Part shown: positions 35,450 through 51,438 of the stretch, piece after piece
How the letters are laid out: each line of letters starts with the position of its first letter
Numbering within the stretch: the stretch's first letter is position 1
NCBI GenBank assembly: GCA_964443125.1
Contig: CAYUBL010000002.1
Span: forward strand, 35,243-99,242
Direction of reading: 5' to 3'
Origin: an uncultured Candidatus Saccharibacteria bacterium
GTDB taxonomy: Bacteria; Patescibacteriota; Andersenbacteria; UBA10190
DNA: 64,000 bases
Translations under genes and position numbers: made by a program
The notes under the pieces: generated by a model
What the model saw: the letters and a program-made list of their open reading frames with translations, nothing else
Told to the model about the DNA's origin: nothing
Databases searched by the model: none

Positions 35450-35525
35450 TGGTCCAGCGGGTAGGAGTCGAACCTACCTAAACGGGTTTTACAGACCCGC
35501 GCATCAGCCGCTCTGCCACCGCTGG
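35450..35525 (-). tRNA. tRNA-Tyr (GTA), archaeal/eukaryal-type
   Basis: 76 nt. C1:G72 pair, A73, anticodon GTA, short 5-nt variable arm; CCA encoded. Confidence 0.85.
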
Positions 35526-35526
35526 A

Positions 35527-35601
35527 TGGAGCCAGCTGTCGGGATCGAACCGACGACCTATTGTTTACAAAACAATTGCTCTACCACTGAGCTAAGCTGG
35601 C
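35527..35601 (-). tRNA. tRNA-Thr (TGT)
   Basis: 75 nt with anticodon loop TTTGTAA; CCA encoded. Lies 1 nt from tRNA-Tyr. Confidence 0.85.
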
Positions 35602-35631
35602 GTATCTTTATAAAATGTATACTATGAATAT

Positions 35632-36702
35632 ATGACAGAAAAACAGGAAATAATCAACCGTTTAACGAATAATCTTGCCGAGGTGATTACCGAAGAAGAG
35701 TTGCGATCTCGCCTGGAATCCGGGGAACAGCTCACTCATTACATTGGGTTTGAAATTTCCGGCTACGTGCATATCGGCCAGGGGATCATGAGCGCGCTGG
35801 TTATCAAGGATCTGCAAGCGCTCGGCGTACAGTGCACTATTTGGCTGGCAGACTGGCATACCGCAATCAATGGAAAGCTGGACGGTACGAAAGAAACGGC
35901 GGCAAAAATCGGCAAGGGATATTTTACGGAAGCGATGAAAGCATGTCTGTTGTCGGTCGGCGCCGATGCCGACGCGGTTGAGTTCCGTTTGGCGAGCGAT
36001 TGGTATAAACAAAACGAAGGAAGCTACTGGGATACGGTAATGAATGTCTTAAAGAACACAAGCATTGCACGACTGCAAAGGAGTATCAGTATTATGGGCA
36101 AGCAGGCAGGGGAAGATGTCGATGGCGCAACCATTATGTATCCGGCTATGCAAGTTGCCGATATATTTTTCCAAGACATCACAGTTGCGCATGCGAGCAT
36201 GGATCAGCGCAAAGCGCATGTCGTCATGCGAGATACGGCGGAAAAAGTGATGCCGGGGAAACCCAAGCCGGTGGCGCTGCATCACGCGCTGATCGACAGT
36301 CTTTCCGGAGAAAACAAGATGAGCAAATCCAAGCCTGATACGGCCGTATTCGTGCACGACAGCGAAGAAGAGATAGCTCGCAAAATCAAAAAAGCCTTTT
36401 GCGAAGAAAAGAATATCGAAAAAAACCCCATTCTCAACTGGACGAAAAACATATTGTTTTGGTCGCGCACAAAACCGTTTGTCATCGAACGGAAGCCGGA
36501 GCACGGCGGGGATGCATCATTTGATTCGTATGAAAACCTGGAAACGGCATATGCAAACGGCGACGTGCATCCGATGGACTTGAAGGCGGCAGTTGTTAAG
36601 GAAATTACTGCGCTGCTTGCACCCGCGCGGGAGCATTTTGCAAATCCTGAAATCGCCGCGTTCAAACAGGAATTGGATACCGTTATTGCAAAACGTACAT
36701 AA
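35632..36702 (+). CDS. tyrS: Tyrosine--tRNA ligase, archaeal/eukaryal type
   Basis: HIGH-region YIGFEISGYVHIGQG and KMSKS. Also matches the archaeal enzyme at EVITEEELR, MYPAMQVADI and HPMDLKAAV. No bacterial C-terminal S4 domain. Confidence 0.85.
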   Translation: MTEKQEIINRLTNNLAEVITEEELRSRLESGEQLTHYIGFEISGYVHIGQGIMSALVIKDLQALGVQCTIWLADWHTAINGKLDGTKETAAKIGKGYFTEAMKACLLSVGADADAVEFRLASDWYKQNEGSYWDTVMNVLKNTSIARLQRSISIMGKQAGEDVDGATIMYPAMQVADIFFQDITVAHASMDQRKAHVVMRDTAEKVMPGKPKPVALHHALIDSLSGENKMSKSKPDTAVFVHDSEEEIARKIKKAFCEEKNIEKNPILNWTKNILFWSRTKPFVIERKPEHGGDASFDSYENLETAYANGDVHPMDLKAAVVKEITALLAPAREHFANPEIAAFKQELDTVIAKRT

Positions 36703-36722
36703 GCCCGTACACTGAGTTCATT

Positions 36723-36794
36723 GCCGATGTAGCTCAGTGGTAGAGCATTTCCATGGTAAGGAAAAGGTCGTGGGTCCGATTCCCACCATCGGCT
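36723..36794 (+). tRNA. tRNA-Thr (GGT)
   Basis: Acceptor GCCGATG/CATCGGC, anticodon loop ATGGTAA, T-arm GGTCCGATTCC. Confidence 0.85.
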
Positions 36795-36831
36795 CATTTC
36801 GTGATCCGACCTTGCTCGGCGCAGTCCGCGC

Positions 36832-38346
36832 TTGATGTACAATAGAAAGATGGCTTTTCTTTTTCGCCGGATGCTGATGTGGATCCTGCTGGCGCTCATC
36901 ATCGCGGGCGCGTATTTCTATTTCTTTGTGGAGCAGCAAGGACCTGAGAGCCGGGAGCCCAATCCTCAGGTGCTGCAGGCGGTGCATCGGGAAATCCCCG
37001 CAATTCATGCACTGGTGGTTCAAGAGGACGGCGATGCCGGCAATCGCCGCATGGTACAGTGCGAGGCGGGCAAGTGCTCCGTCCGTCGAGCGCCGGAATC
37101 AATCGAGGGGGAAGCGCTGTTCGATGGAGAGAACTGGTATCGCTATGCAAATGCGGGAGATGAAGCAAGGAAGCGGATCGTACTTGAACGAATAGATTCA
37201 TCCGGAGCCGCGCATACTATAACGGAAGAAAACATATTGGTACGCCCGCGCGATATGATTATCAGCGTGGATGGTGGAAAGCTGGCATACTTCCTCGACA
37301 ATATCAGCGATGCGAAAGGGCTAACGGAGCTGTGGGTATACGATAGCAAAGAGGGAGGCACTCGAGTGGTTGCGGAAAAGCTGACGAAGAACAATATTGC
37401 ATCTCCCGTCCGATGGAATGCGTCTTCCCGCGTGGCGTGGTTTTTACAAGAAGAAAAAAAGAAGCAGCTTACCGTTGTCCGCATGCATGGCGCAACGGCT
37501 GCAGCGGGCTTTGCGCATGTTGATTGGAATATTCATGCAAAAGCGGCGGAGAGCGGCGCAATGGATATCAATGATGACGCAACGCTGGTAGCATTTGCGG
37601 AAGAGTCGAGCGGGCCTGTTTCCAAGCTGTTTGTTGCCAAGGAGGGCGGAGGAATGATCCAAAAGTCCGTGAAAGGCACCGTCGTGTTTCTCCAATGGAC
37701 GCAGGGCGACTCGCTCGTGTACGCAGTACAGGACGGGGGAGATATATCCTTCTGGATGGCAAATACGGAAAAGGAGTGGCCGATTACCCGCATGGCAGCA
37801 ACGTTTGAGTCCGCTCGAAGCGTACATGCGTCGCAGGGGAAAAGCTTGGCGTTTGTTGCGAGTCCGCGGAATGGCGAGACCCATGTATACGTATTGCAAA
37901 TTGAAAGCGGGAATATAAAAGATGAAGCGATTGTCCCGCAATTCGCCGGACGGACGCATCTCGTACAAGCGTCGGCAAGCAATTCGGGGGCGGCGTTTGC
38001 GCAATTCGCCGAGCATGCTATTTCCGATAGCGAGCTGATTGCATTCATAGAGCAGCATATTCAGGAGATTTCCGGCCAGCAGTCGGCGCGGCTCACGCGT
38101 ATTTTGGTGACCGATGCTTTGCATACCTGCCTCGTAGATTATGTTGACGATGCCGGGCAAGAGCAGCGCATCCAGGTGGCAATTATGGATATTTTGCACC
38201 CGGAATGGCGGGTATTGGGGCGGTATACGGTCGTAAACGGCAAGTGGATCCGCTCGGAAGAGGGGGCGGGAAGAGAGCCTGGAGTTGTTCGATTATATGA
38301 ATGGGAAGAAGCGCTTTCCCAGTGGATTTTGAAAAATACGTTCTAA
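36832..38346 (+). CDS. Hypothetical membrane-anchored protein (beta-propeller-like ectodomain)
   Basis: N-terminal TM and a long beta-rich body. No catalytic motif. Alternative start at 36850. Confidence 0.5.
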   Translation: MMYNRKMAFLFRRMLMWILLALIIAGAYFYFFVEQQGPESREPNPQVLQAVHREIPAIHALVVQEDGDAGNRRMVQCEAGKCSVRRAPESIEGEALFDGENWYRYANAGDEARKRIVLERIDSSGAAHTITEENILVRPRDMIISVDGGKLAYFLDNISDAKGLTELWVYDSKEGGTRVVAEKLTKNNIASPVRWNASSRVAWFLQEEKKKQLTVVRMHGATAAAGFAHVDWNIHAKAAESGAMDINDDATLVAFAEESSGPVSKLFVAKEGGGMIQKSVKGTVVFLQWTQGDSLVYAVQDGGDISFWMANTEKEWPITRMAATFESARSVHASQGKSLAFVASPRNGETHVYVLQIESGNIKDEAIVPQFAGRTHLVQASASNSGAAFAQFAEHAISDSELIAFIEQHIQEISGQQSARLTRILVTDALHTCLVDYVDDAGQEQRIQVAIMDILHPEWRVLGRYTVVNGKWIRSEEGAGREPGVVRLYEWEEALSQWILKNTF

Positions 38347-38398
38347 ATTGGCTCTATTGAGCCAATTATAAATTCTGGGAAAAACGGACAAATAGCAC

Positions 38399-38428
38399 TT
38401 GACATTTTTCCCAATATTGTAGTACTAT
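38399..38428 (+). promoter_or_regulatory. Putative promoter (TTGACA-18-TACTAT) upstream of the first surface-protein gene
   Basis: Hexamers about 40 nt upstream of the 38467 start. Confidence 0.45.
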
Positions 38429-38466
38429 CACAGGTTAATCTTTAACCTAACTAATTAACGTACGCT

Positions 38467-39684
38467 ATGGTACAAGCAATGAGTCGAACACAAATACTGG
38501 GAACAATGCTGGTTGCACTTGCGGCAGTACTGTTTGCAGGCGTTGCGCCTGATGCAAACGCATCCGCTCCTGCAACGTTTAAATTCACCTATCAGCAGGA
38601 AATGGTGCATTTTCTCAACAGCTTGGGAAAATATCCATATATCAAGGCTGATTCGGTTCTCGGAAACAGCGAGAATGCGCAAAAGCTTTGCTATTTGAAG
38701 GGGTACGAAAAAGTGGCCGGATTTACGGTTCGCAAGTATTCGTCTCCATCAAATAACACGATCGCGTACTGGGATGGCCATGGATGGTCTACCAAGAACG
38801 CAGCAAAGCTGGGTAATCCCGGCCAGCTCGACACGCTGACGTGTTCGGATCCGTTTGGAGCGGCTATGCCAACTCCGACTCCGACGCCAAAACCAACACC
38901 GAAGCCAACTCCAAAACCAACACCGCATCCGACTCCAACTCCTACCCCTGAATCCAAGGACGTGATTATCACGATGTTGATTAATGGACAGGCAAAACCG
39001 GAGGGAATTGACGCAAATACTTCGTTTACCCTTTCATGGCATGCGAAGAATGCAAACTTCTGCAAAGCGTCTCGTGATTGGTCTGGAAACAAGCCGGTAT
39101 CCGGTTCCGTAGTTATTACGCCAACGGAAGGACGAACCTTCTCGTACCGGCTCGATTGCGGAAACACCAAGACCGGGGAGTCTGCGCACAAGACGATCAA
39201 TCTGACTGTCTTTGGCGAAGAGGAAACTCCTACGCCTACTCCGGAAGCAACTCCAACTCCGACTCCTACCCCAACTCCTGCAGTATTCGCAACATGCGTC
39301 AATGCTGACGGGAAGCTGATTGCGGTTACGATCGACTCGTTGGAAAACTGCAACGTAAACACGAACACGCAAACGATTAGCTTGAATATCGACAACAGCG
39401 CGAACAACAGCGCGAATAACAGTTCGAACAACAGCTCCGAAAACAAGGCTGTAGCTAACAACTCCGGCAACAGCAACAAAGTGAGCGTGAATCAGGAAGT
39501 TGATTCAGAAAAGCAAGGAAGGATCGCAGGAGCAGCTGCAATCCACACAGTTCGCCCAGTATCGGCTGTGCCGGTACCGGTAACTGCAAAGACCGGTGCG
39601 GGAGACATGGCAGCGCTTGCCTTCTCCACAATCTCCGGAGGAAGCGGACTTGCATACATCATCCGCAAAACCCTGCTCGGATAA
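38467..39684 (+). CDS. Secreted Pro/Thr-linker surface protein with C-terminal sorting-signal-like tail
   Basis: Signal peptide. A conserved ~95-aa N-terminal domain shared with the next gene. PTPTPKPTPKP linkers; an N/S-rich segment. Tail is VPVTAKTGAGD, then hydrophobic, then RKTLLG. Confidence 0.7.
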   Translation: MVQAMSRTQILGTMLVALAAVLFAGVAPDANASAPATFKFTYQQEMVHFLNSLGKYPYIKADSVLGNSENAQKLCYLKGYEKVAGFTVRKYSSPSNNTIAYWDGHGWSTKNAAKLGNPGQLDTLTCSDPFGAAMPTPTPTPKPTPKPTPKPTPHPTPTPTPESKDVIITMLINGQAKPEGIDANTSFTLSWHAKNANFCKASRDWSGNKPVSGSVVITPTEGRTFSYRLDCGNTKTGESAHKTINLTVFGEEETPTPTPEATPTPTPTPTPAVFATCVNADGKLIAVTIDSLENCNVNTNTQTISLNIDNSANNSANNSSNNSSENKAVANNSGNSNKVSVNQEVDSEKQGRIAGAAAIHTVRPVSAVPVPVTAKTGAGDMAALAFSTISGGSGLAYIIRKTLLG

Positions 39685-39793
39685 CAACGATTAAAGAGGA
39701 CATAGAAACCCCGCTTGCGCAAGCGGGGTTTCTGCTATACGGTGAACTGTTGGCCCTTTTATCTCTTTATTTACCCATAAGCATATTCATTCC

Positions 39794-42124
39794 ATGAATA
39801 AATTTCTTTCGTACGGAGCAGGAATAGGTATCGCGGCAGGGCTTATGTTTGCGCTTCTTGTGCAGGCGGCGCCCAAGGCTCACGCGGCTCTTCCGTCCAC
39901 ATACACGTTCACCTATCAGGAACAGATGGTGCAGTTCCTCAACAGCCTGGGAATTTATCCGTTTATCAAGGCTGATTCTGTCCGCGCGAACACCACAAAC
40001 GCGTATAAACTCTGTAATCTCAAGGGGTATTCCACCGTTTCAGGGTACACGGTGCGCAAGTATTCTTCTCCGGAAAACAATACGCTTGCGACATGGAATG
40101 AATCGTTGCAGCAATGGACTACGCAGAATGCAAAAAAGGCGGGTAACCCCGGCCAGCTCGACACGCTGATGTGTTCCAATCCAATCGTAAAGCCGACGCC
40201 TACTCCAACTCCGACACCAACACCAACACCTACTCCAACGCCGACTCCAACACCTACGCCAAATGCGGCACCGGTAGCAAATGCGAAGGTGAGTGTGAAC
40301 GGCGGCACCCCATCTGCCAGCGTGAGTATTGAACGCGGCGTGCCGGTTTCTATTAGTCTTTCCGCAGAGGGCAGCTTTGATCCGAACGGATGGAATACCC
40401 AGCTCACTGGCGTATCTACAGGAGGAAAGTGCGAATGGAATTCCGACTTGAACCAGGGAAGCCCGACGTTTGATCACACGGTATTTAACCCTGCATCGCC
40501 AGGGGCCTGCAACATCGGCCTTGGCACGCTTACATTCTTCGATGCACCCGGAACATACACCTACCATGTATTGCGCATCACCGACGCTGCAGGCGCAGTG
40601 TCGAATGTAGCATCGGTTTCAGTGACGGTGTTTGCAAGCGCAACGCCGACCCCAAAGCCGTCTCCGACTCCAACGCCGAGCCCGACGCCAACTCCCACCC
40701 CAACGCCTTCTCCAACGCCTATCGTTGATGTAGCAACAAGCTTGGAATGTCCGGTCATTCACGGGACGGTAACGCCGGGCGCAACGAAGATTTCTGTGCA
40801 ATTGCATCCGACGCCTTCTTCGGCATCCAAGTCGGGGCACGTGATCCATTGGAGCTCTTCGCTTGGGACGTCATTCGTTGATCCGGACCAATCGACGACG
40901 AATGGACAGGGAATTGCATCCACTGACTTTATCCTGCCATTTGACGCCGGAATTAGTGGCACGGCAACCGTAACCGCGCAATTCCAGGGATCAACGGTTG
41001 GCAATCAGCATTATCAATCGTCCAGCTGTACGATTTCTTTCGCCTACGATTCGCCGCTGCTTCCGTCCCCGACGCCTACTCCAACTCCGACACCAAGCCC
41101 AACTCCAACACCAACTCCCACACCAACGCCTACGCCAAGCCCGACTCCGTCTCCTACACCGTCTCCGACTCCAATTCCAAATAATGCGCCCGTAGCCGAT
41201 GCGAAAGTAAGTATCAACGGCGCAACGGCAGTACACCACTTTACCGTAACGCGAGGCGTGCCGGTAACGGTTGGGCTTTCGTCTGCAGACAGTTTTGATC
41301 CGAACGGATGGAGCACGCCGAATGTCGGAGTATCTGCAGGAGGAAAATGCGAATGGAATTCCGACTTGAATCAGGGCAGCCCGACGTTCGAATCGATCGT
41401 CCATAATCCGGCAGCGCCATTTAGCTGCAACATAGGCCTCGGAACGCTGACGTTCTTCGACACCCCGGGAACATATACATACCACGTACTCCGCATTACC
41501 GACGCTGCAAATGCAGTATCGAATGTCGCTGCGGTCCAGGTAACTGTGCTTCCGGGACAAGAACCAAGTCCGACGCCAACACCGACTCCAACGCCGAGCC
41601 CGACACCTACGCCAAGTCCTTCGCCGACACCAACTCCTACACCTACCCCCACACCAACGCCGACTTGCAGCGATGGGATCGATAATGACCATGACGGATT
41701 CGTAGACAGCCACGATTCCGACTGCCACACGGACCATAATCCGAAGAATCCGAATTCATACGATCCGAACGGAAATGAAGACGGAAAGAATCAGGCTCAG
41801 TGTTCTGATTCAAAGGACAACGACAATGACGGAGCGATCGACGGCGGAGATGCAAACTGCCACACGGACGGCAACCCGAATAACCCGAACTCCTTTAATC
41901 CGCATGGCAGCGAGTTTCCGACGGTAACGCCGACTCCGACAGTGCCTCCAGTCTCTCTTTCAACCGGAAACCAGCAGAAGCAGGGCCAGTCGATACGCCT
42001 GAAGATCAACAACAGCGCAAATAATTCTTCGAATAACAGCTCCAACAACAGCTCGGAGAACAAAGCAGAGGCGAAAAACGAAGGGAATAGCAACGAGGTC
42101 ATCATTAACCAAAAAGCAGACTAG
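39794..42124 (+). CDS. Large secreted Pro/Thr-linker surface protein (paralog of 38467..39684)
   Basis: Signal peptide and the shared N-terminal domain. Two ~125-aa repeats. Two Cys/Asp motifs resembling the MopE-type metal-binding motif. N/S-rich tail. Confidence 0.7.
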   Translation: MNKFLSYGAGIGIAAGLMFALLVQAAPKAHAALPSTYTFTYQEQMVQFLNSLGIYPFIKADSVRANTTNAYKLCNLKGYSTVSGYTVRKYSSPENNTLATWNESLQQWTTQNAKKAGNPGQLDTLMCSNPIVKPTPTPTPTPTPTPTPTPTPTPTPNAAPVANAKVSVNGGTPSASVSIERGVPVSISLSAEGSFDPNGWNTQLTGVSTGGKCEWNSDLNQGSPTFDHTVFNPASPGACNIGLGTLTFFDAPGTYTYHVLRITDAAGAVSNVASVSVTVFASATPTPKPSPTPTPSPTPTPTPTPSPTPIVDVATSLECPVIHGTVTPGATKISVQLHPTPSSASKSGHVIHWSSSLGTSFVDPDQSTTNGQGIASTDFILPFDAGISGTATVTAQFQGSTVGNQHYQSSSCTISFAYDSPLLPSPTPTPTPTPSPTPTPTPTPTPTPSPTPSPTPSPTPIPNNAPVADAKVSINGATAVHHFTVTRGVPVTVGLSSADSFDPNGWSTPNVGVSAGGKCEWNSDLNQGSPTFESIVHNPAAPFSCNIGLGTLTFFDTPGTYTYHVLRITDAANAVSNVAAVQVTVLPGQEPSPTPTPTPTPSPTPTPSPSPTPTPTPTPTPTPTCSDGIDNDHDGFVDSHDSDCHTDHNPKNPNSYDPNGNEDGKNQAQCSDSKDNDNDGAIDGGDANCHTDGNPNNPNSFNPHGSEFPTVTPTPTVPPVSLSTGNQQKQGQSIRLKINNSANNSSNNSSNNSSENKAEAKNEGNSNEVIINQKAD

Positions 42125-42163
42125 GAGTTGCAATAAAACAGGCTTTGTGGTAGAGTGCTTCCT

Positions 42164-42328
42164 ATGTCACAAGATAATCTCATTCGGCTCCAGTGCACTG
42201 AATGCAAGACCTACAACTACCATACCCGCCGCAATCTGAAGCGAAGGGATACGGAAAAGCTTGAACGGTCCAAGTATTGCAGCACGTGCCGGGAGCATAC
42301 AACCCACAAAGAAAAAGCAAAGAAGTAA
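42164..42328 (+). CDS. rpmG: 50S ribosomal protein L33
   Basis: 54 aa, MSQDNLIRLQCTECKTYNYHTRRNLKRRDTEKLERSKYCSTCREHTTHKE, with a CxxC...CxxC zinc ribbon. Below the ORF-track length cut-off. Confidence 0.85.
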   Translation: MSQDNLIRLQCTECKTYNYHTRRNLKRRDTEKLERSKYCSTCREHTTHKEKAKK

Positions 42329-42537
42329 AAAGAGGCCCCGTATTAGCCAAATGGCAATGCGTGGCTCTTGTAAGGGTTCAAAATCTTCGCGTTCCCCGAT
42401 GAAGAGGTAGCTTACGGCGTCTCCAAAATCGCAACCCGCAGCTATATATCGTTTTTCTGCTTGTTGGTCAGTCAAAAATCGCTTGAAAAAACGAGACATT
42501 TTGCTTTCTCCTAAAAAGAGCAGGATTGATCGGCGGG

Positions 42538-42608
42538 CAGGGGTGGAAGGAATCGAACCCTCAGTCTGGGATTTGGAGTCCCATGGTTTACCATTAACCG
42601 ACACCCCT
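42538..42608 (-). tRNA. tRNA-Trp (CCA)
   Basis: Starts AGGGGTG as in E. coli tRNA-Trp (A1:U72). Anticodon loop CTCCAAA; discriminator G. Confidence 0.8.
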
Positions 42609-42671
42609 CTATGTGCCCATTGTACATATATTTCACTTTTCGGCTAGTTTGGGTCGTGTTAGGTTACTTGC

Positions 42672-43343
42672 ATGGCTAATCAGAGGCTAAAAATTGGCGT
42701 TGATATTGACGGCGTGTTGATAGATACTGATCCGCGCGCCTACTTGGAATTCTGTGAAAAAGAATTGGGATGGAATATCGACTATAAAGCGTTCGAAGAA
42801 ACGCACGCGTTCTATAGGGCGACCGGTGTAACCTCGCATGAAGAAATATCCGCAGCATTCGAGCGGTTCATTCATGAAACAGAGAATGCGCAAGGTCCGA
42901 TTGATGGCGCGCATGATGCGTTAAAAGCACTGCAAAAACATGCGGATATTTATTTAATAACTGCTCGTACCGGAATGATGCGAAAAATTACGGAAGATTT
43001 TTTGCAGGAACATCTGCCCGATGTGCAGTATATGGAAATTTCGATGGGGAATGTGAATGGTAAAGCGCCGCAGATTATTAATTTCGGGGTCGATTATTAC
43101 ATTGATGACAGTTATCGAGAAATAGCTGCTATTCTAGAAGACTCCACAGTTACGACAAAAATCATCCCGTTTCCGCCATTTCATAGCTTTCAGCGATGGA
43201 ACAGCATTCGCGATGACCGCATCCATTGGCTTGATGTCTGGAAAAAAATCCCGGCGGATCTAGATATGAGCAAGCACCCGGAGATTCGGAAAAGGGCATG
43301 GGAAGAAATTGTATCGCATATATTGCCCCTAGAAGCCGTATAG
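42672..43343 (+). CDS. HAD-like nucleotidase (5'(3')-deoxyribonucleotidase-like)
   Basis: Motif I IGVDIDGVLID and a YYIDDS motif. Confidence 0.55.
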   Translation: MANQRLKIGVDIDGVLIDTDPRAYLEFCEKELGWNIDYKAFEETHAFYRATGVTSHEEISAAFERFIHETENAQGPIDGAHDALKALQKHADIYLITARTGMMRKITEDFLQEHLPDVQYMEISMGNVNGKAPQIINFGVDYYIDDSYREIAAILEDSTVTTKIIPFPPFHSFQRWNSIRDDRIHWLDVWKKIPADLDMSKHPEIRKRAWEEIVSHILPLEAV

Positions 43344-49688: not shown

Positions 49689-50222
49689 ATGTTTTTGCGT
49701 TCGCATATTGTAATCGCGGCGGGCTTGTTGCTCGTGTGCGCGAGTCTTGGGATATCGGAATACCGGCGCCAGCAATACGAGAACCTGATACAGAGCGTGC
49801 ATCTGCAAGAGGTGCACGCAAGCCACGCTGCAAGCCCTCCTGCGGCAATCGACATACCGTCCGTTCATCTGAATGTGCCGCTTGCTGCCGGATATATCAT
49901 TGACGGCATCTGGACAGTATCAAAAACGCACGCGCTGCATTTGTCCAACTCCGCGTATCCGGGCCACCCGGGCAATATCATTGTATACGGGCATAACAGC
50001 AGGGATATATTCGGCCGTTTATCCCAGGTGCAAATCGGCGATGAGATTATCCTCTCCGCTGCGGATCAGGAGCGCTATGCATATCGCATCACCGGGATTC
50101 ATACAACAACCGCAGACGACGCTTCTTCGATAGCGCAAACAGAAGAAGAAGTGCTGACGATCTATACGTGTACGGGGTTGTTTGATTCCAAGCGGCTTAT
50201 TGTGAGAGCGGAGCGTTTGTAG
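49689..50222 (+). CDS. Sortase (membrane-anchored transpeptidase)
   Basis: N-terminal TM. His motif IVYGHNSRD, Cys motif LTIYTCTG, conserved Arg in RLIVRAERL. Confidence 0.75.
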   Translation: MFLRSHIVIAAGLLLVCASLGISEYRRQQYENLIQSVHLQEVHASHAASPPAAIDIPSVHLNVPLAAGYIIDGIWTVSKTHALHLSNSAYPGHPGNIIVYGHNSRDIFGRLSQVQIGDEIILSAADQERYAYRITGIHTTTADDASSIAQTEEEVLTIYTCTGLFDSKRLIVRAERL

Positions 50223-50682: not shown

Positions 50683-51438
50683 CTAGACAGAAAGGCTGAC
50701 TGGCCGGGTAAGTTGGGTGATATTCGTCAATTCGGCGTGGATAAGCATGCGCTGCTTGGTCGACCACAGCGGCCAGCATGCCATGATGGAGAGCGTCGGA
50801 ACGGGACGGTCGGAGATAACTCGAAAATCGGCTGTGGGGGTAATAATTTCGCTTTCGGTAATCCGGTACGAGTACCGGGCGCCGTTCCAATCCACATGCA
50901 CTGCGTCGCCCGCCTGTAATTCATTGATGCGCAAAAATGCAAACCGGAACGGACCTTTCCATGGCTCTCCGGTGCTGTGGGCGGAAATAAACGCATTGCC
51001 AAGGGCTCCGGGAGCAACACCGTTGGGGTAGAGCGCCGCGCCTCTCTCGAGCGTGTCGATGACATCGCTATCCGCAAGGGATGCGCTTTTTACGAGCGGG
51101 ACTTTAACATCTATCGCCGGAATACGCAGCATGTTTTGCCGGGCTTCTGCAGGCTCGTACGGAGGGGTAAGCGGAATTTGAATAGGATATGGATTTACCG
51201 CAGCCTGTGCAACGGCTTCGGATACGGGAATAACCCGGTCGGGGCTTACGGGGAGCTGGGCAATGCGGACCGGCTCCGAGAGGGAGAACAGAGACGCGGA
51301 AAGCAGGGGGGCGAAGGTGGATGCTCCCATGGCAATACCGAAGAGAAACAAGAATGCGAAGAAAAACGTTGCAGAGAACGTTTGGGCGGCCTTGGAGGCG
51401 CTGATCGGCTCAATGAAGTATTCCCGGTTCGTAAACAT
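50683..51438 (-). CDS. Sortase (second copy, class E/F-like)
   Basis: N-terminal TM; LRIPAIDVKVPL, His in NAFISAHSTG, Cys in TLSIMACWP, RMLIHAEL. Confidence 0.7.
   Translation of the reverse strand: MFTNREYFIEPISASKAAQTFSATFFFAFLFLFGIAMGASTFAPLLSASLFSLSEPVRIAQLPVSPDRVIPVSEAVAQAAVNPYPIQIPLTPPYEPAEARQNMLRIPAIDVKVPLVKSASLADSDVIDTLERGAALYPNGVAPGALGNAFISAHSTGEPWKGPFRFAFLRINELQAGDAVHVDWNGARYSYRITESEIITPTADFRVISDRPVPTLSIMACWPLWSTKQRMLIHAELTNITQLTRPVSLSV

Follow-up and report, generated by a model that had tools for sequence, protein, structure and literature searches.

In the ultra-small bacteria of the Candidate Phyla Radiation (CPR, Patescibacteria), the recognition and holding of host cells has so far been linked by genetic evidence to type IV pili and a few adhesins (PMC10633639; PMC12206443). 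Saccharibacteria, for their part, depend on type IV pili together with several adhesins in order to grow as epibionts (PMC10633639). A sortase is encoded in more than half of the CPR genomes (PMC6744442). Among the closest described systems to the locus analysed here are the sortase-anchored fibrillar adhesins of Gram-positive bacteria, of the types known as microbial surface components recognizing adhesive matrix molecules (MSCRAMM-type) and 'stalk plus tip', and the modular 'bulky' type IV pilins with an adhesive module at the C-terminus, of which PilB of S. sanguinis with its vWA module is an example (bioRxiv 10.1101/2021.01.27.428410). The DNA under study was a stretch of 64,000 nucleotides (the window) from an uncultured Candidatus Saccharibacteria bacterium (contig CAYUBL010000002.1 of assembly GCA_964443125.1, positions 35,243 to 99,242, forward strand), and the subject is a pair of tandem genes in it, designated gene A (405 aa) and gene B (776 aa). 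The products of A and B are interpreted, with a probability of about 0.55, as paralogous cell-surface stalk proteins with a distal binding head, of which A would be anchored by sortase and B would be unanchored.

The features of both genes are collected in Table 1. An earlier note on this DNA, made from the sequence alone, had described two tandem paralogous secreted proteins at this place, and its account of their parts was borne out by the analysis. Both genes matched the respective open reading frames (ORFs) in the ORF list exactly, both proteins carry, as read from the sequence, signal peptides with AXA-type sites, the Asn/Ser-rich tail is common to both proteins (63% identity over 56 residues), and the two ~125-aa repeats of B are 70% identical (E 3e-64), with 75% identity over 300 nt at the DNA level. 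Only the shorter protein, A, ends in a sorting-like tail, which consists of VPVPVTAKTGAGD, a hydrophobic stretch and RKTLLG. The N-terminal regions of A and B are 59% identical over 119 residues (E 4e-43), and the head domains alone are 65% identical over ~100 aa. In A the head is followed by a Pro/Thr linker, a ~90-aa immunoglobulin (Ig)-like domain, a second Pro/Thr linker, the Asn/Ser segment and the sorting tail. In B it is followed by a linker, repeat R1, a linker, a Big_1-like domain, a linker, repeat R2, a linker, two acidic repeats and the Asn/Ser segment, after which the frame stops. The Pro/Thr linkers are imperfect repeats of 12-nt periodicity with 60-75% mutual identity, not perfect collapsed copies.

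Cysteines are strictly paired in both proteins (75/126, 199/231 and 277/295 in A; 74/127, 213/239, 319/412, 519/545, 625/644 and 670/689 in B), with each pair lying within one domain. Modules that are extracytoplasmic and disulfide-bonded would be expected to show such a pairing. A and B are regarded with high confidence as secreted modular surface or extracellular proteins. The middle-domain module of A recurs in the related proteins P0003 and P0006 and is repeated ~11 times in tandem in L004:6779-10585, a CPR protein of 1269 aa (P numbers stand for related proteins and L numbers for the contigs carrying relatives). At the latter place one plus-strand frame of 1269 codons was observed, which encodes a signal peptide, ~11 tandem Ig-like repeats of the form 'LSWTSTNATSCTASxGWSG' and the R repeat in duplicate, and the public gene calls there (three minus-strand genes and a truncated 195-aa P0069) appear to be wrong. 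A curlin-like or amyloid reading of the Asn/Ser tail was also considered and was set aside, as Pfam gave no support for it.

Table 1. Features of genes A and B and of associated elements, with positions in the window and residue numbers in the respective proteins.
Feature	Position	Strand	Basis or remark
Gene A, 405-aa secreted modular protein with C-terminal sorting signal (putative)	38467-39684	+	orthologue L001:6861-8066, 70% identical
Gene B, 776-aa secreted modular protein without sorting signal	39794-42124	+	orthologue L002:380-2368, 77% identical
Promoter-like site upstream of A (TTGACA, 18-nt spacer, TACTAT)	38399-38428	+	10/12 matches, consensus only
Signal peptide of A, aa 1-32, ends ANA↓S	38467-38562	+	read from sequence: basic n-region, hydrophobic core, AXA site
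Head domain of A, aa 33-131, alpha/beta, conserved Cys pair	38563-38859	+	AlphaFold2 (AF2) pLDDT 91; no curated family
Pro/Thr(/Lys) linker 1 of A	38860-38949	+	
Middle domain of A, aa 162-252, Cys199-Cys231, 'LSW..NA..C.AS..WSG.K' Ig-like repeat type	38950-39222	+	no Pfam match
Pro/Thr linker 2 of A	39223-39279	+	
Asn/Ser-rich segment of A (NIDNSANNSANNSSNNSSENKA...VSVNQEVD), common to B C-terminus	39385-39504	+	
Second motif in A, residues ~350-377	~39514-39597		
Sorting-signal-like tripartite tail of A (VPVPVTAKTG, hydrophobic segment, RKTLLG)	39568-39681	+	
Palindromic 14-bp hairpin between A and B, terminator-like, weak U-tract	39703-39734	+	-23 kcal/mol, z = -4.3
Signal peptide of B, aa 1-31, ends AHA↓A	39794-39886	+	read from sequence
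Head domain of B, aa 32-132	39887-40189	+	
Repeat R1 of B, aa 157-281, Ig-like/PKD-like beta-sandwich (predicted), Cys213-Cys239	40262-40636	+	
Middle domain of B, aa 310-421, Cys319-Cys412, sub-threshold Big_1-like	40721-41056	+	absent from orthologue
Repeat R2 of B, aa 463-588, Cys519-Cys545	41180-41557	+	89% identical to orthologous R2
Two acidic Cys/Asp repeats of B (CSDGIDNDHDGFVD..C, CSDSKDNDNDGAID..C)	41666-41914	+	NF033662 53.3 bits; Cys 625-644, 670-689
Asn/Ser-rich C-terminal segment of B, homologous to that of A, nothing after	42002-42121	+	
Sortase, 177 aa, best sub-threshold class D (including LPxTATN-specific model)	49689-50222	+	PF04203, E 1.9e-24
Sortase, 251 aa, best sub-threshold class E	50683-51438	-	PF04203, E 3.9e-19; 74% to orthologue in metagenome-assembled genome CAZPRL01

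Orthologues of both genes were obtained by a one-genome-per-species scan, which gave two contigs (L001 and L002) of the metagenome-assembled genome (MAG) CAZPRL01 of an uncultured Candidatus Saccharibacteria with the same gene order. When A was looked up as an exact match in public assemblies, there was no hit. L001 carries genes for a GT2 protein, a DUF2334 deacetylase, tyrosyl-tRNA synthetase (TyrRS), a 492-aa protein and the A orthologue, and L002 carries the B orthologue, a methyltransferase, hydrolases and the second sortase. Between the window and the MAG, neighbouring proteins are 62-82% identical, a range in which both A and B lie. The ratio of nonsynonymous to synonymous substitution rates (dN/dS) was 0.05-0.24 across all domains of A and B against the MAG orthologues, with saturated dS. 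A and B are intact and under purifying selection, and an assembly artefact from a collapsed Pro/Thr repeat, or a pseudogene, is unlikely because the MAG orthologues exist and dN/dS is low. The contigs of the MAG end exactly between A and B, and its B orthologue has 662 aa as against 776 aa, without the Big_1-like middle domain and one adjoining Pro/Thr linker, which can be either a real gain or loss of a domain or a linker-to-linker collapse in a short-read MAG assembly. The linker lengths and the presence of the middle domain are therefore to be read cautiously. The two heads in the MAG are 79% identical to each other and ~66% identical to their positional orthologues (65% for the pair in the window), which suggests that the tandem paralogous heads underwent some gene conversion in one lineage.

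The proposed anchoring of A was deduced from its C-terminal tail. After the motif, the tail of A reads AGD-MAALAFSTISGGSGLAYII-RKTLLG, and the same layout, namely the motif, 2-4 residues, a ~20-residue hydrophobic segment with a GG.GL core and R/K, was found in its orthologue, P0004, P0014 and L006:2-568, the last being a fragment at a contig end. The core VP[VI]TA[KAR]TG (V-P-x-T-A-x-T-G) is invariant in these five tails, and the whole tails are 33-36% identical. By its sequence, the tail of A has the classic tripartite layout of a sorting signal, and its motif can be read as LPxTA-like (VPxTA) or LAxTG-like (TAxTG). Among the ORFs of the window obtained by the tail scan, that of A was the sole one on a plausible coding frame. 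A remnant of a sorting signal was looked for 3' of B and none was found; the L33-like ORF described below was found there instead. A second motif, [RKQ][IV]AG[AI], was observed 13-40 residues upstream of VPxTAxTG in all five tail proteins (GRIAGAA, AKIAGAA, PRVAGAT, PRIAGAA and PQVAGIQ), and it might belong to a longer signal for sorting or processing.

The two sortases that the earlier note had placed downstream are present, each with a PF04203 match (Table 1). In the MAG, the 251-aa sortase alone has a counterpart at the equivalent position, next to a conserved gene for nucleoside 2-deoxyribosyltransferase. The 177-aa sortase has no syntenic counterpart in the MAG, where a different 177-aa ORF was observed at L002 8660-9363. 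A link between a sortase and A is plausible, and it is not established by gene order. To our knowledge, the substrate specificity of CPR sortases is uncharacterised, and a literature search on a CPR sortase substrate motif or a non-LPXTG tail found nothing. Processing of A by sortase is the reading that needs the fewest assumptions, and it is considered somewhat more probable than its opposite.

The head domain could not be assigned to a curated family, in agreement with the earlier reading of the sequence. Profile scans of A, B and 68 full-length relatives against Pfam and NCBIfam gave nothing covering the head, and the same two libraries at permissive E-values gave nothing recurrent on 35 isolated head segments. 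The head profile had 0 matches among PDB sequences at E ≤ 10. By an exhaustive HMMER search of 1.84 billion representatives, 68 proteins were obtained at E ≤ 1e-3 and 8 at ≤ 1e-10, a word-indexed homology search of 5.8 billion clusters gave one fragment only (P0001), and no relatives were confirmed by two metagenome scans, of which one used the head domain and the other the sorting tail. The named sources of the head are Candidatus Staskawiczbacteria, a Bdellovibrionales MAG, Saccharibacteria and Andersenbacteria. The earlier note had taken the system to be lineage-specific, which is correct only in part: further CPR phyla and a Bdellovibrionales MAG have the head as well.

The AF2 model of the head had a predicted local distance difference test score (pLDDT) of 91. 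In the 35-sequence alignment Cys43, Gly47, Asn65, Trp70, Leu92 and Cys94 are invariant, and both members of a second Cys pair are found in 21 sequences, neither in 14 and a single one never. Because the second pair co-occurs or is absent together, there is good evidence from the alignment that the head family has two disulfides, one of which would have been lost in A and B. The best matches of the head model in PDB by Foldseek were the SRCR domains of TMPRSS13, TMPRSS2, enteropeptidase, M2BP and hepsin (E 0.7-3, template modelling (TM) score 0.35-0.45), and nothing was matched in BFVD. SRCR domains are likewise extracellular, disulfide-bonded alpha/beta domains of similar size, and a 'D..A..(V/I)C..LG' helix was aligned by hhalign; however, the Cys pattern of the head is not that of SRCR. 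An SRCR identity of the head was rejected, given an hhalign probability of 1.9% against SRCR sequences, no Pfam SRCR match in the 35 members and the non-significant Foldseek values. The dN of the head is 0.23-0.28, the highest among the globular parts (0.075 for R2 and 0.09 for the acidic repeats).

The position of the head in its relatives bears on what it does. It is terminal in 54 of 67 proteins, and in all three complete proteins with a sorting tail (A, P0004 and P0014) it lies right after the signal peptide. In the N_methyl pilin-like proteins P0009 (four copies), P0032 and L003:9467-10414 it is C-terminal to the pilin N-terminus; the last of these, from Candidatus Andersenbacteria, lies within a cluster encoding PilC (T2SSF, E 1e-58) and further N_methyl proteins. 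By a crude regular expression, at least 11 small proteins with a lipobox-like N-terminus also have the head as their C-terminal half. The N-terminal methylation motif PF07963 is present in the three pilin-like proteins and was absent from A and B in the Pfam scan. The partner domains in head proteins are DUF11, CARDB, PKD, FG-GAP and the MopE-type motif, all of extracellular or adhesive types. Since the head is terminal, lies opposite the anchor in several anchored architectures that could be read and is accompanied by adhesive partner domains, it has the position expected of a displayed binding module. A ligand-binding (adhesion) module is taken to be the likeliest function of the head, with a chance that is put at about even.

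The pairing of an anchored with an unanchored protein has a parallel on contig L006, where the fragment with a VPVTARTG tail lies directly 5' of P0006, as A precedes B. P0006 is an unanchored protein of 1268 aa with the head, the middle-domain type of A, the R repeat and acidic repeats. The large unanchored head proteins P0003, P0006, P0031 and P0041 were observed to end in ..GGVVETR, ..GGFQETR, ..GDVIETE and ..GDIRETE, respectively, without a hydrophobic segment, and this short acidic C-terminus may be another conserved C-terminal signal.

The stalk of B is built mainly of modules related to known types. In the R repeat (and B), PKD_4 and He_PIG were matched below threshold over the last strands (13.7-18.5 bits against Pfam cut-offs of 24-27), and the gathering score of PKD (PF18911 / PF00801) was not reached, with 13.7-13.9 bits for B and R1 and 18 bits for the relative P0069 against 27. 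The AF2 model of the repeat was an all-beta sandwich with a pLDDT of 67, and the top PDB matches of this model by Foldseek were the CelAly B1 domain and the PKD domain 4xed (E 6e-3 to 8e-3, TM 0.4-0.5, probability ~1.0), followed by many Ig-like folds. The repeat resembles PKD and He_PIG domains in its N-terminal 'APVA.A' and C-terminal 'GTYTY..ITDA.G' strands, and it differs from them in an extra ~35-residue Cys-bracketed insertion (GGKCEWNSDL...C) and in its scores under the cut-off; it is taken, by the model, to be an Ig domain of divergent PKD-like type that bears this insertion. In its exact form it is rare, having been found in two proteins (P0069 and P0002) in the 5.8 billion clusters. 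The middle domain of B was matched by Big_1 (PF02369) with E 1.4e-3 and 19.2 bits, below the cut-off of 34.9.

The earlier note had compared the two CxDxxDNDxDG segments of B with the MopE-type metal-binding motif. The segments and the motif class were recovered, but the matching family is NF033662 (acid_disulf_rpt; cut-off 41 bits, E 1.6e-14, two stretches at B residues ~623-700) and not PF11617 (Cu-binding_MopE), for which the Pfam scan gave no match on B at E ≤ 1. PF11617 is matched by 8 of 68 other head-domain proteins. A DNDxDGxxD pattern flanked by Cys is shared by B with NF033662, PF11617 and thrombospondin type-3-like repeats, and the difference from NF033662 is that each copy in B has one Cys pair, not two. 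Loops of the DxDxDG type bind Ca2+, and the same is presumed for the DNDxDGxxD loops of B.

From these features the following mechanism is proposed. A and B would be exported by the Sec system with cleavage of their signal peptides, and each bead would fold oxidatively. VPVTAKTG of A would then probably be cleaved by one of the sortases of the genome and A be linked to peptidoglycan, so that the wall-linked protein would hold its head at the tip of a Pro/Thr and Ig-like stalk, farthest from the wall. There the head may bind an external ligand, possibly on a host cell. A ligand on the host cell is considered because cultivated Saccharibacteria are epibiotic, and by this analogy it is a possibility of rather low probability. 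B would carry the same head on a longer stalk with probable Ca2+-binding repeats and would be released or held non-covalently; how it might be retained, perhaps by the Asn/Ser segment that it has in common with A or by its acidic repeats, is pure speculation.

Several points weigh against this mechanism. The motif is non-canonical, and TIGR01167 (LPXTG_anchor) gave no match at E ≤ 10 for A, P0004 and P0014. The tail is so far known on five proteins; a search for it in the 5.8-billion-protein set, for whose size so short a query is unsuited, gave no scorable match. At least four of the five (A, its orthologue, P0004 and P0014) belong to the same head family, and because of this they are not independent evidence of a modular signal. 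Neither sortase reaches any class-specific cut-off, and both lie 8-9 kb from A and B, beyond unrelated housekeeping genes. The head has no informative structural neighbour, the best SRCR match having E ~0.7 and TM ~0.44, and its dN/dS of 0.11-0.20 gives no sign of diversifying selection overall. Finally, each functional step, namely export, disulfide formation, sortase processing, localisation, Ca2+ binding, the binding function and the ligand, is inferred from sequence. The same non-canonical motif and the distant sortases of unassignable class would also suit a tail that is a plain membrane anchor, with A as a type I membrane-tethered protein without sortase processing and VPxTAxTG as a structural juxtamembrane motif. 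This explanation is considered unlikely, as it does not account for the classic tripartite layout (a motif ending in TG, 2-4 residues, ~20 hydrophobic residues and R/K) or for the invariance of the motif in tails that are otherwise so divergent; moreover, the motif holds both the VPxTA and the TAxTG core, and the best sub-threshold classes of the sortases are D (with the LPxTATN-specific model) and E.

Other functions for the two proteins were weighed in the same way. A role as building blocks of an S-layer or other envelope lattice, raised in the earlier note as an S-layer-like system, would fit A and B in their being secreted, repetitive and probably glycosylated at the Pro/Thr linkers, and weak NCBIfam matches to an anammox S-layer glycoprotein model were obtained; these matches (NF052345, S_layer_anammox), however, reached 14-22 bits against a cut-off of 1400 and fell on the low-complexity Pro/Thr linkers, and no SLH or other S-layer domain was found in A or B by the Pfam scan. 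A bead-on-a-string layout with long flexible linkers is typical of fibrillar adhesins and not of lattice formers, and so rare a family would be odd for a major envelope component. A pilus was suggested by the nearby sortases, by the Ig-like domains and by the newly described donor-strand-exchange pilus of Saccharimonadia, whose Pam pilins (PamA/PamB) have two beta-domains joined by a donor strand and are encoded in an operon with PapD-like chaperones near ATP synthase genes (bioRxiv 10.64898/2026.03.03.709456). Against subunits of a sortase-assembled pilus, B lacks the sorting signal that every such subunit needs and neither sortase reaches the class C cut-off; against Pam subunits, the alpha/beta head, the Pro/Thr linkers and the other neighbours set A and B apart from the description of Pam. 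The S-layer and pilus readings thus have essentially no support, and both are very improbable. The head could also be a small secreted enzyme or toxin module delivered by A and B, since it is terminal and modular like many polymorphic toxin domains; this is improbable as well, given that an acid/base/nucleophile set is lacking among its invariant residues (two Cys, Gly, Asn, Trp and Leu), that its place in A and B is the N-terminus and not the C-terminus usual for polymorphic toxin domains, that no immunity-like small gene follows B, and that the domain is fused to pilins and lipoproteins.

The surroundings of the two genes were also recorded. The sigma-70-like promoter match before A is the sole such site in 38200-42700, and A and B may be transcribed separately, as a hairpin lies between them (Table 1). 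A 504-aa ORF just 5' of A (36832-38346, +) has an N-terminal hydrophobic segment and a MAG counterpart at the same position with 62% identity, and it was matched by no Pfam or NCBIfam family. Right after B lies a Cys-rich 54-aa ORF (~42164-42328, +; MSQDNLIRLQCTECKTYNYHTRRNLKRRD...), which, recognised by eye, we take to resemble ribosomal protein L33, and a tRNA-Trp gene on the minus strand (42536-42608) is situated just beyond it. The TyrRS gene (35632-36702) lies between tRNA genes (35450-36795): those for tRNA-Tyr and one tRNA-Thr border it at one end, and that for another tRNA-Thr borders it at the opposite end. The GC skew is negative only in 38001-42000 (-0.01 and -0.14; ~+0.1 elsewhere), an inversion at 38-42 kb that is explained by the Pro/Thr linkers, whose codons read CCN and ACN on the coding strand.

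As a candidate adhesion module, the head is concrete: it is small, was modelled with high confidence and occupies the exposed terminus of wall-anchored stalks, of pilins and of lipoproteins in several lineages of cell-associated bacteria. The conserved non-LPXTG tail could define a CPR sortase substrate motif. Should the head prove to be just one more spacer, A and B would be an unremarkable pair of hypothetical surface proteins. A wider conjecture, to which a low probability is given, is that the head is a disulfide-locked cell-recognition module of cell-attached bacteria (Saccharibacteria, Andersenbacteria, Staskawiczbacteria and predatory Bdellovibrionales), displayed on three interchangeable platforms, namely the sortase stalk, the type IV minor pilin and the lipoprotein; the pair of anchored and unanchored genes would then be the functional unit, in which the soluble long-stalk partner would cooperate with the one fixed to the wall via the VPxTAxTG signal.

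Compared with the described systems, most parts of A and B are divergent members of known module types, and what is uncatalogued is the rare, well-folding head on several display platforms and the conserved non-LPXTG sorting-like tail. The bulky type IV pilins have their like in the head relatives L003:9467-10414, P0009 and P0032, which carry the head behind an N_methyl pilin N-terminus, whereas A and B have ordinary signal peptides and the platform proposed here is a wall-anchored stalk. With the MSCRAMM-type and 'stalk plus tip' adhesins of Gram-positive bacteria, A shares a signal peptide, a non-repeat domain at the distal N-terminal end, a stalk made of Ig-like domains and low-complexity linkers, a tail of motif, hydrophobic segment and basic residues, and the presence of sortases in the genome. 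It differs from them in that its motif is VP[VI]TA[KAR]TG and not LPXTG, that its head belongs to no described adhesin family, that its paralogue B has no anchor, and that it comes from a CPR bacterium, with sortases that cannot be placed in any defined class. A and B are plausible, though unproven, attachment proteins, and they represent a type of wall-anchored modular surface protein that is not categorically new.

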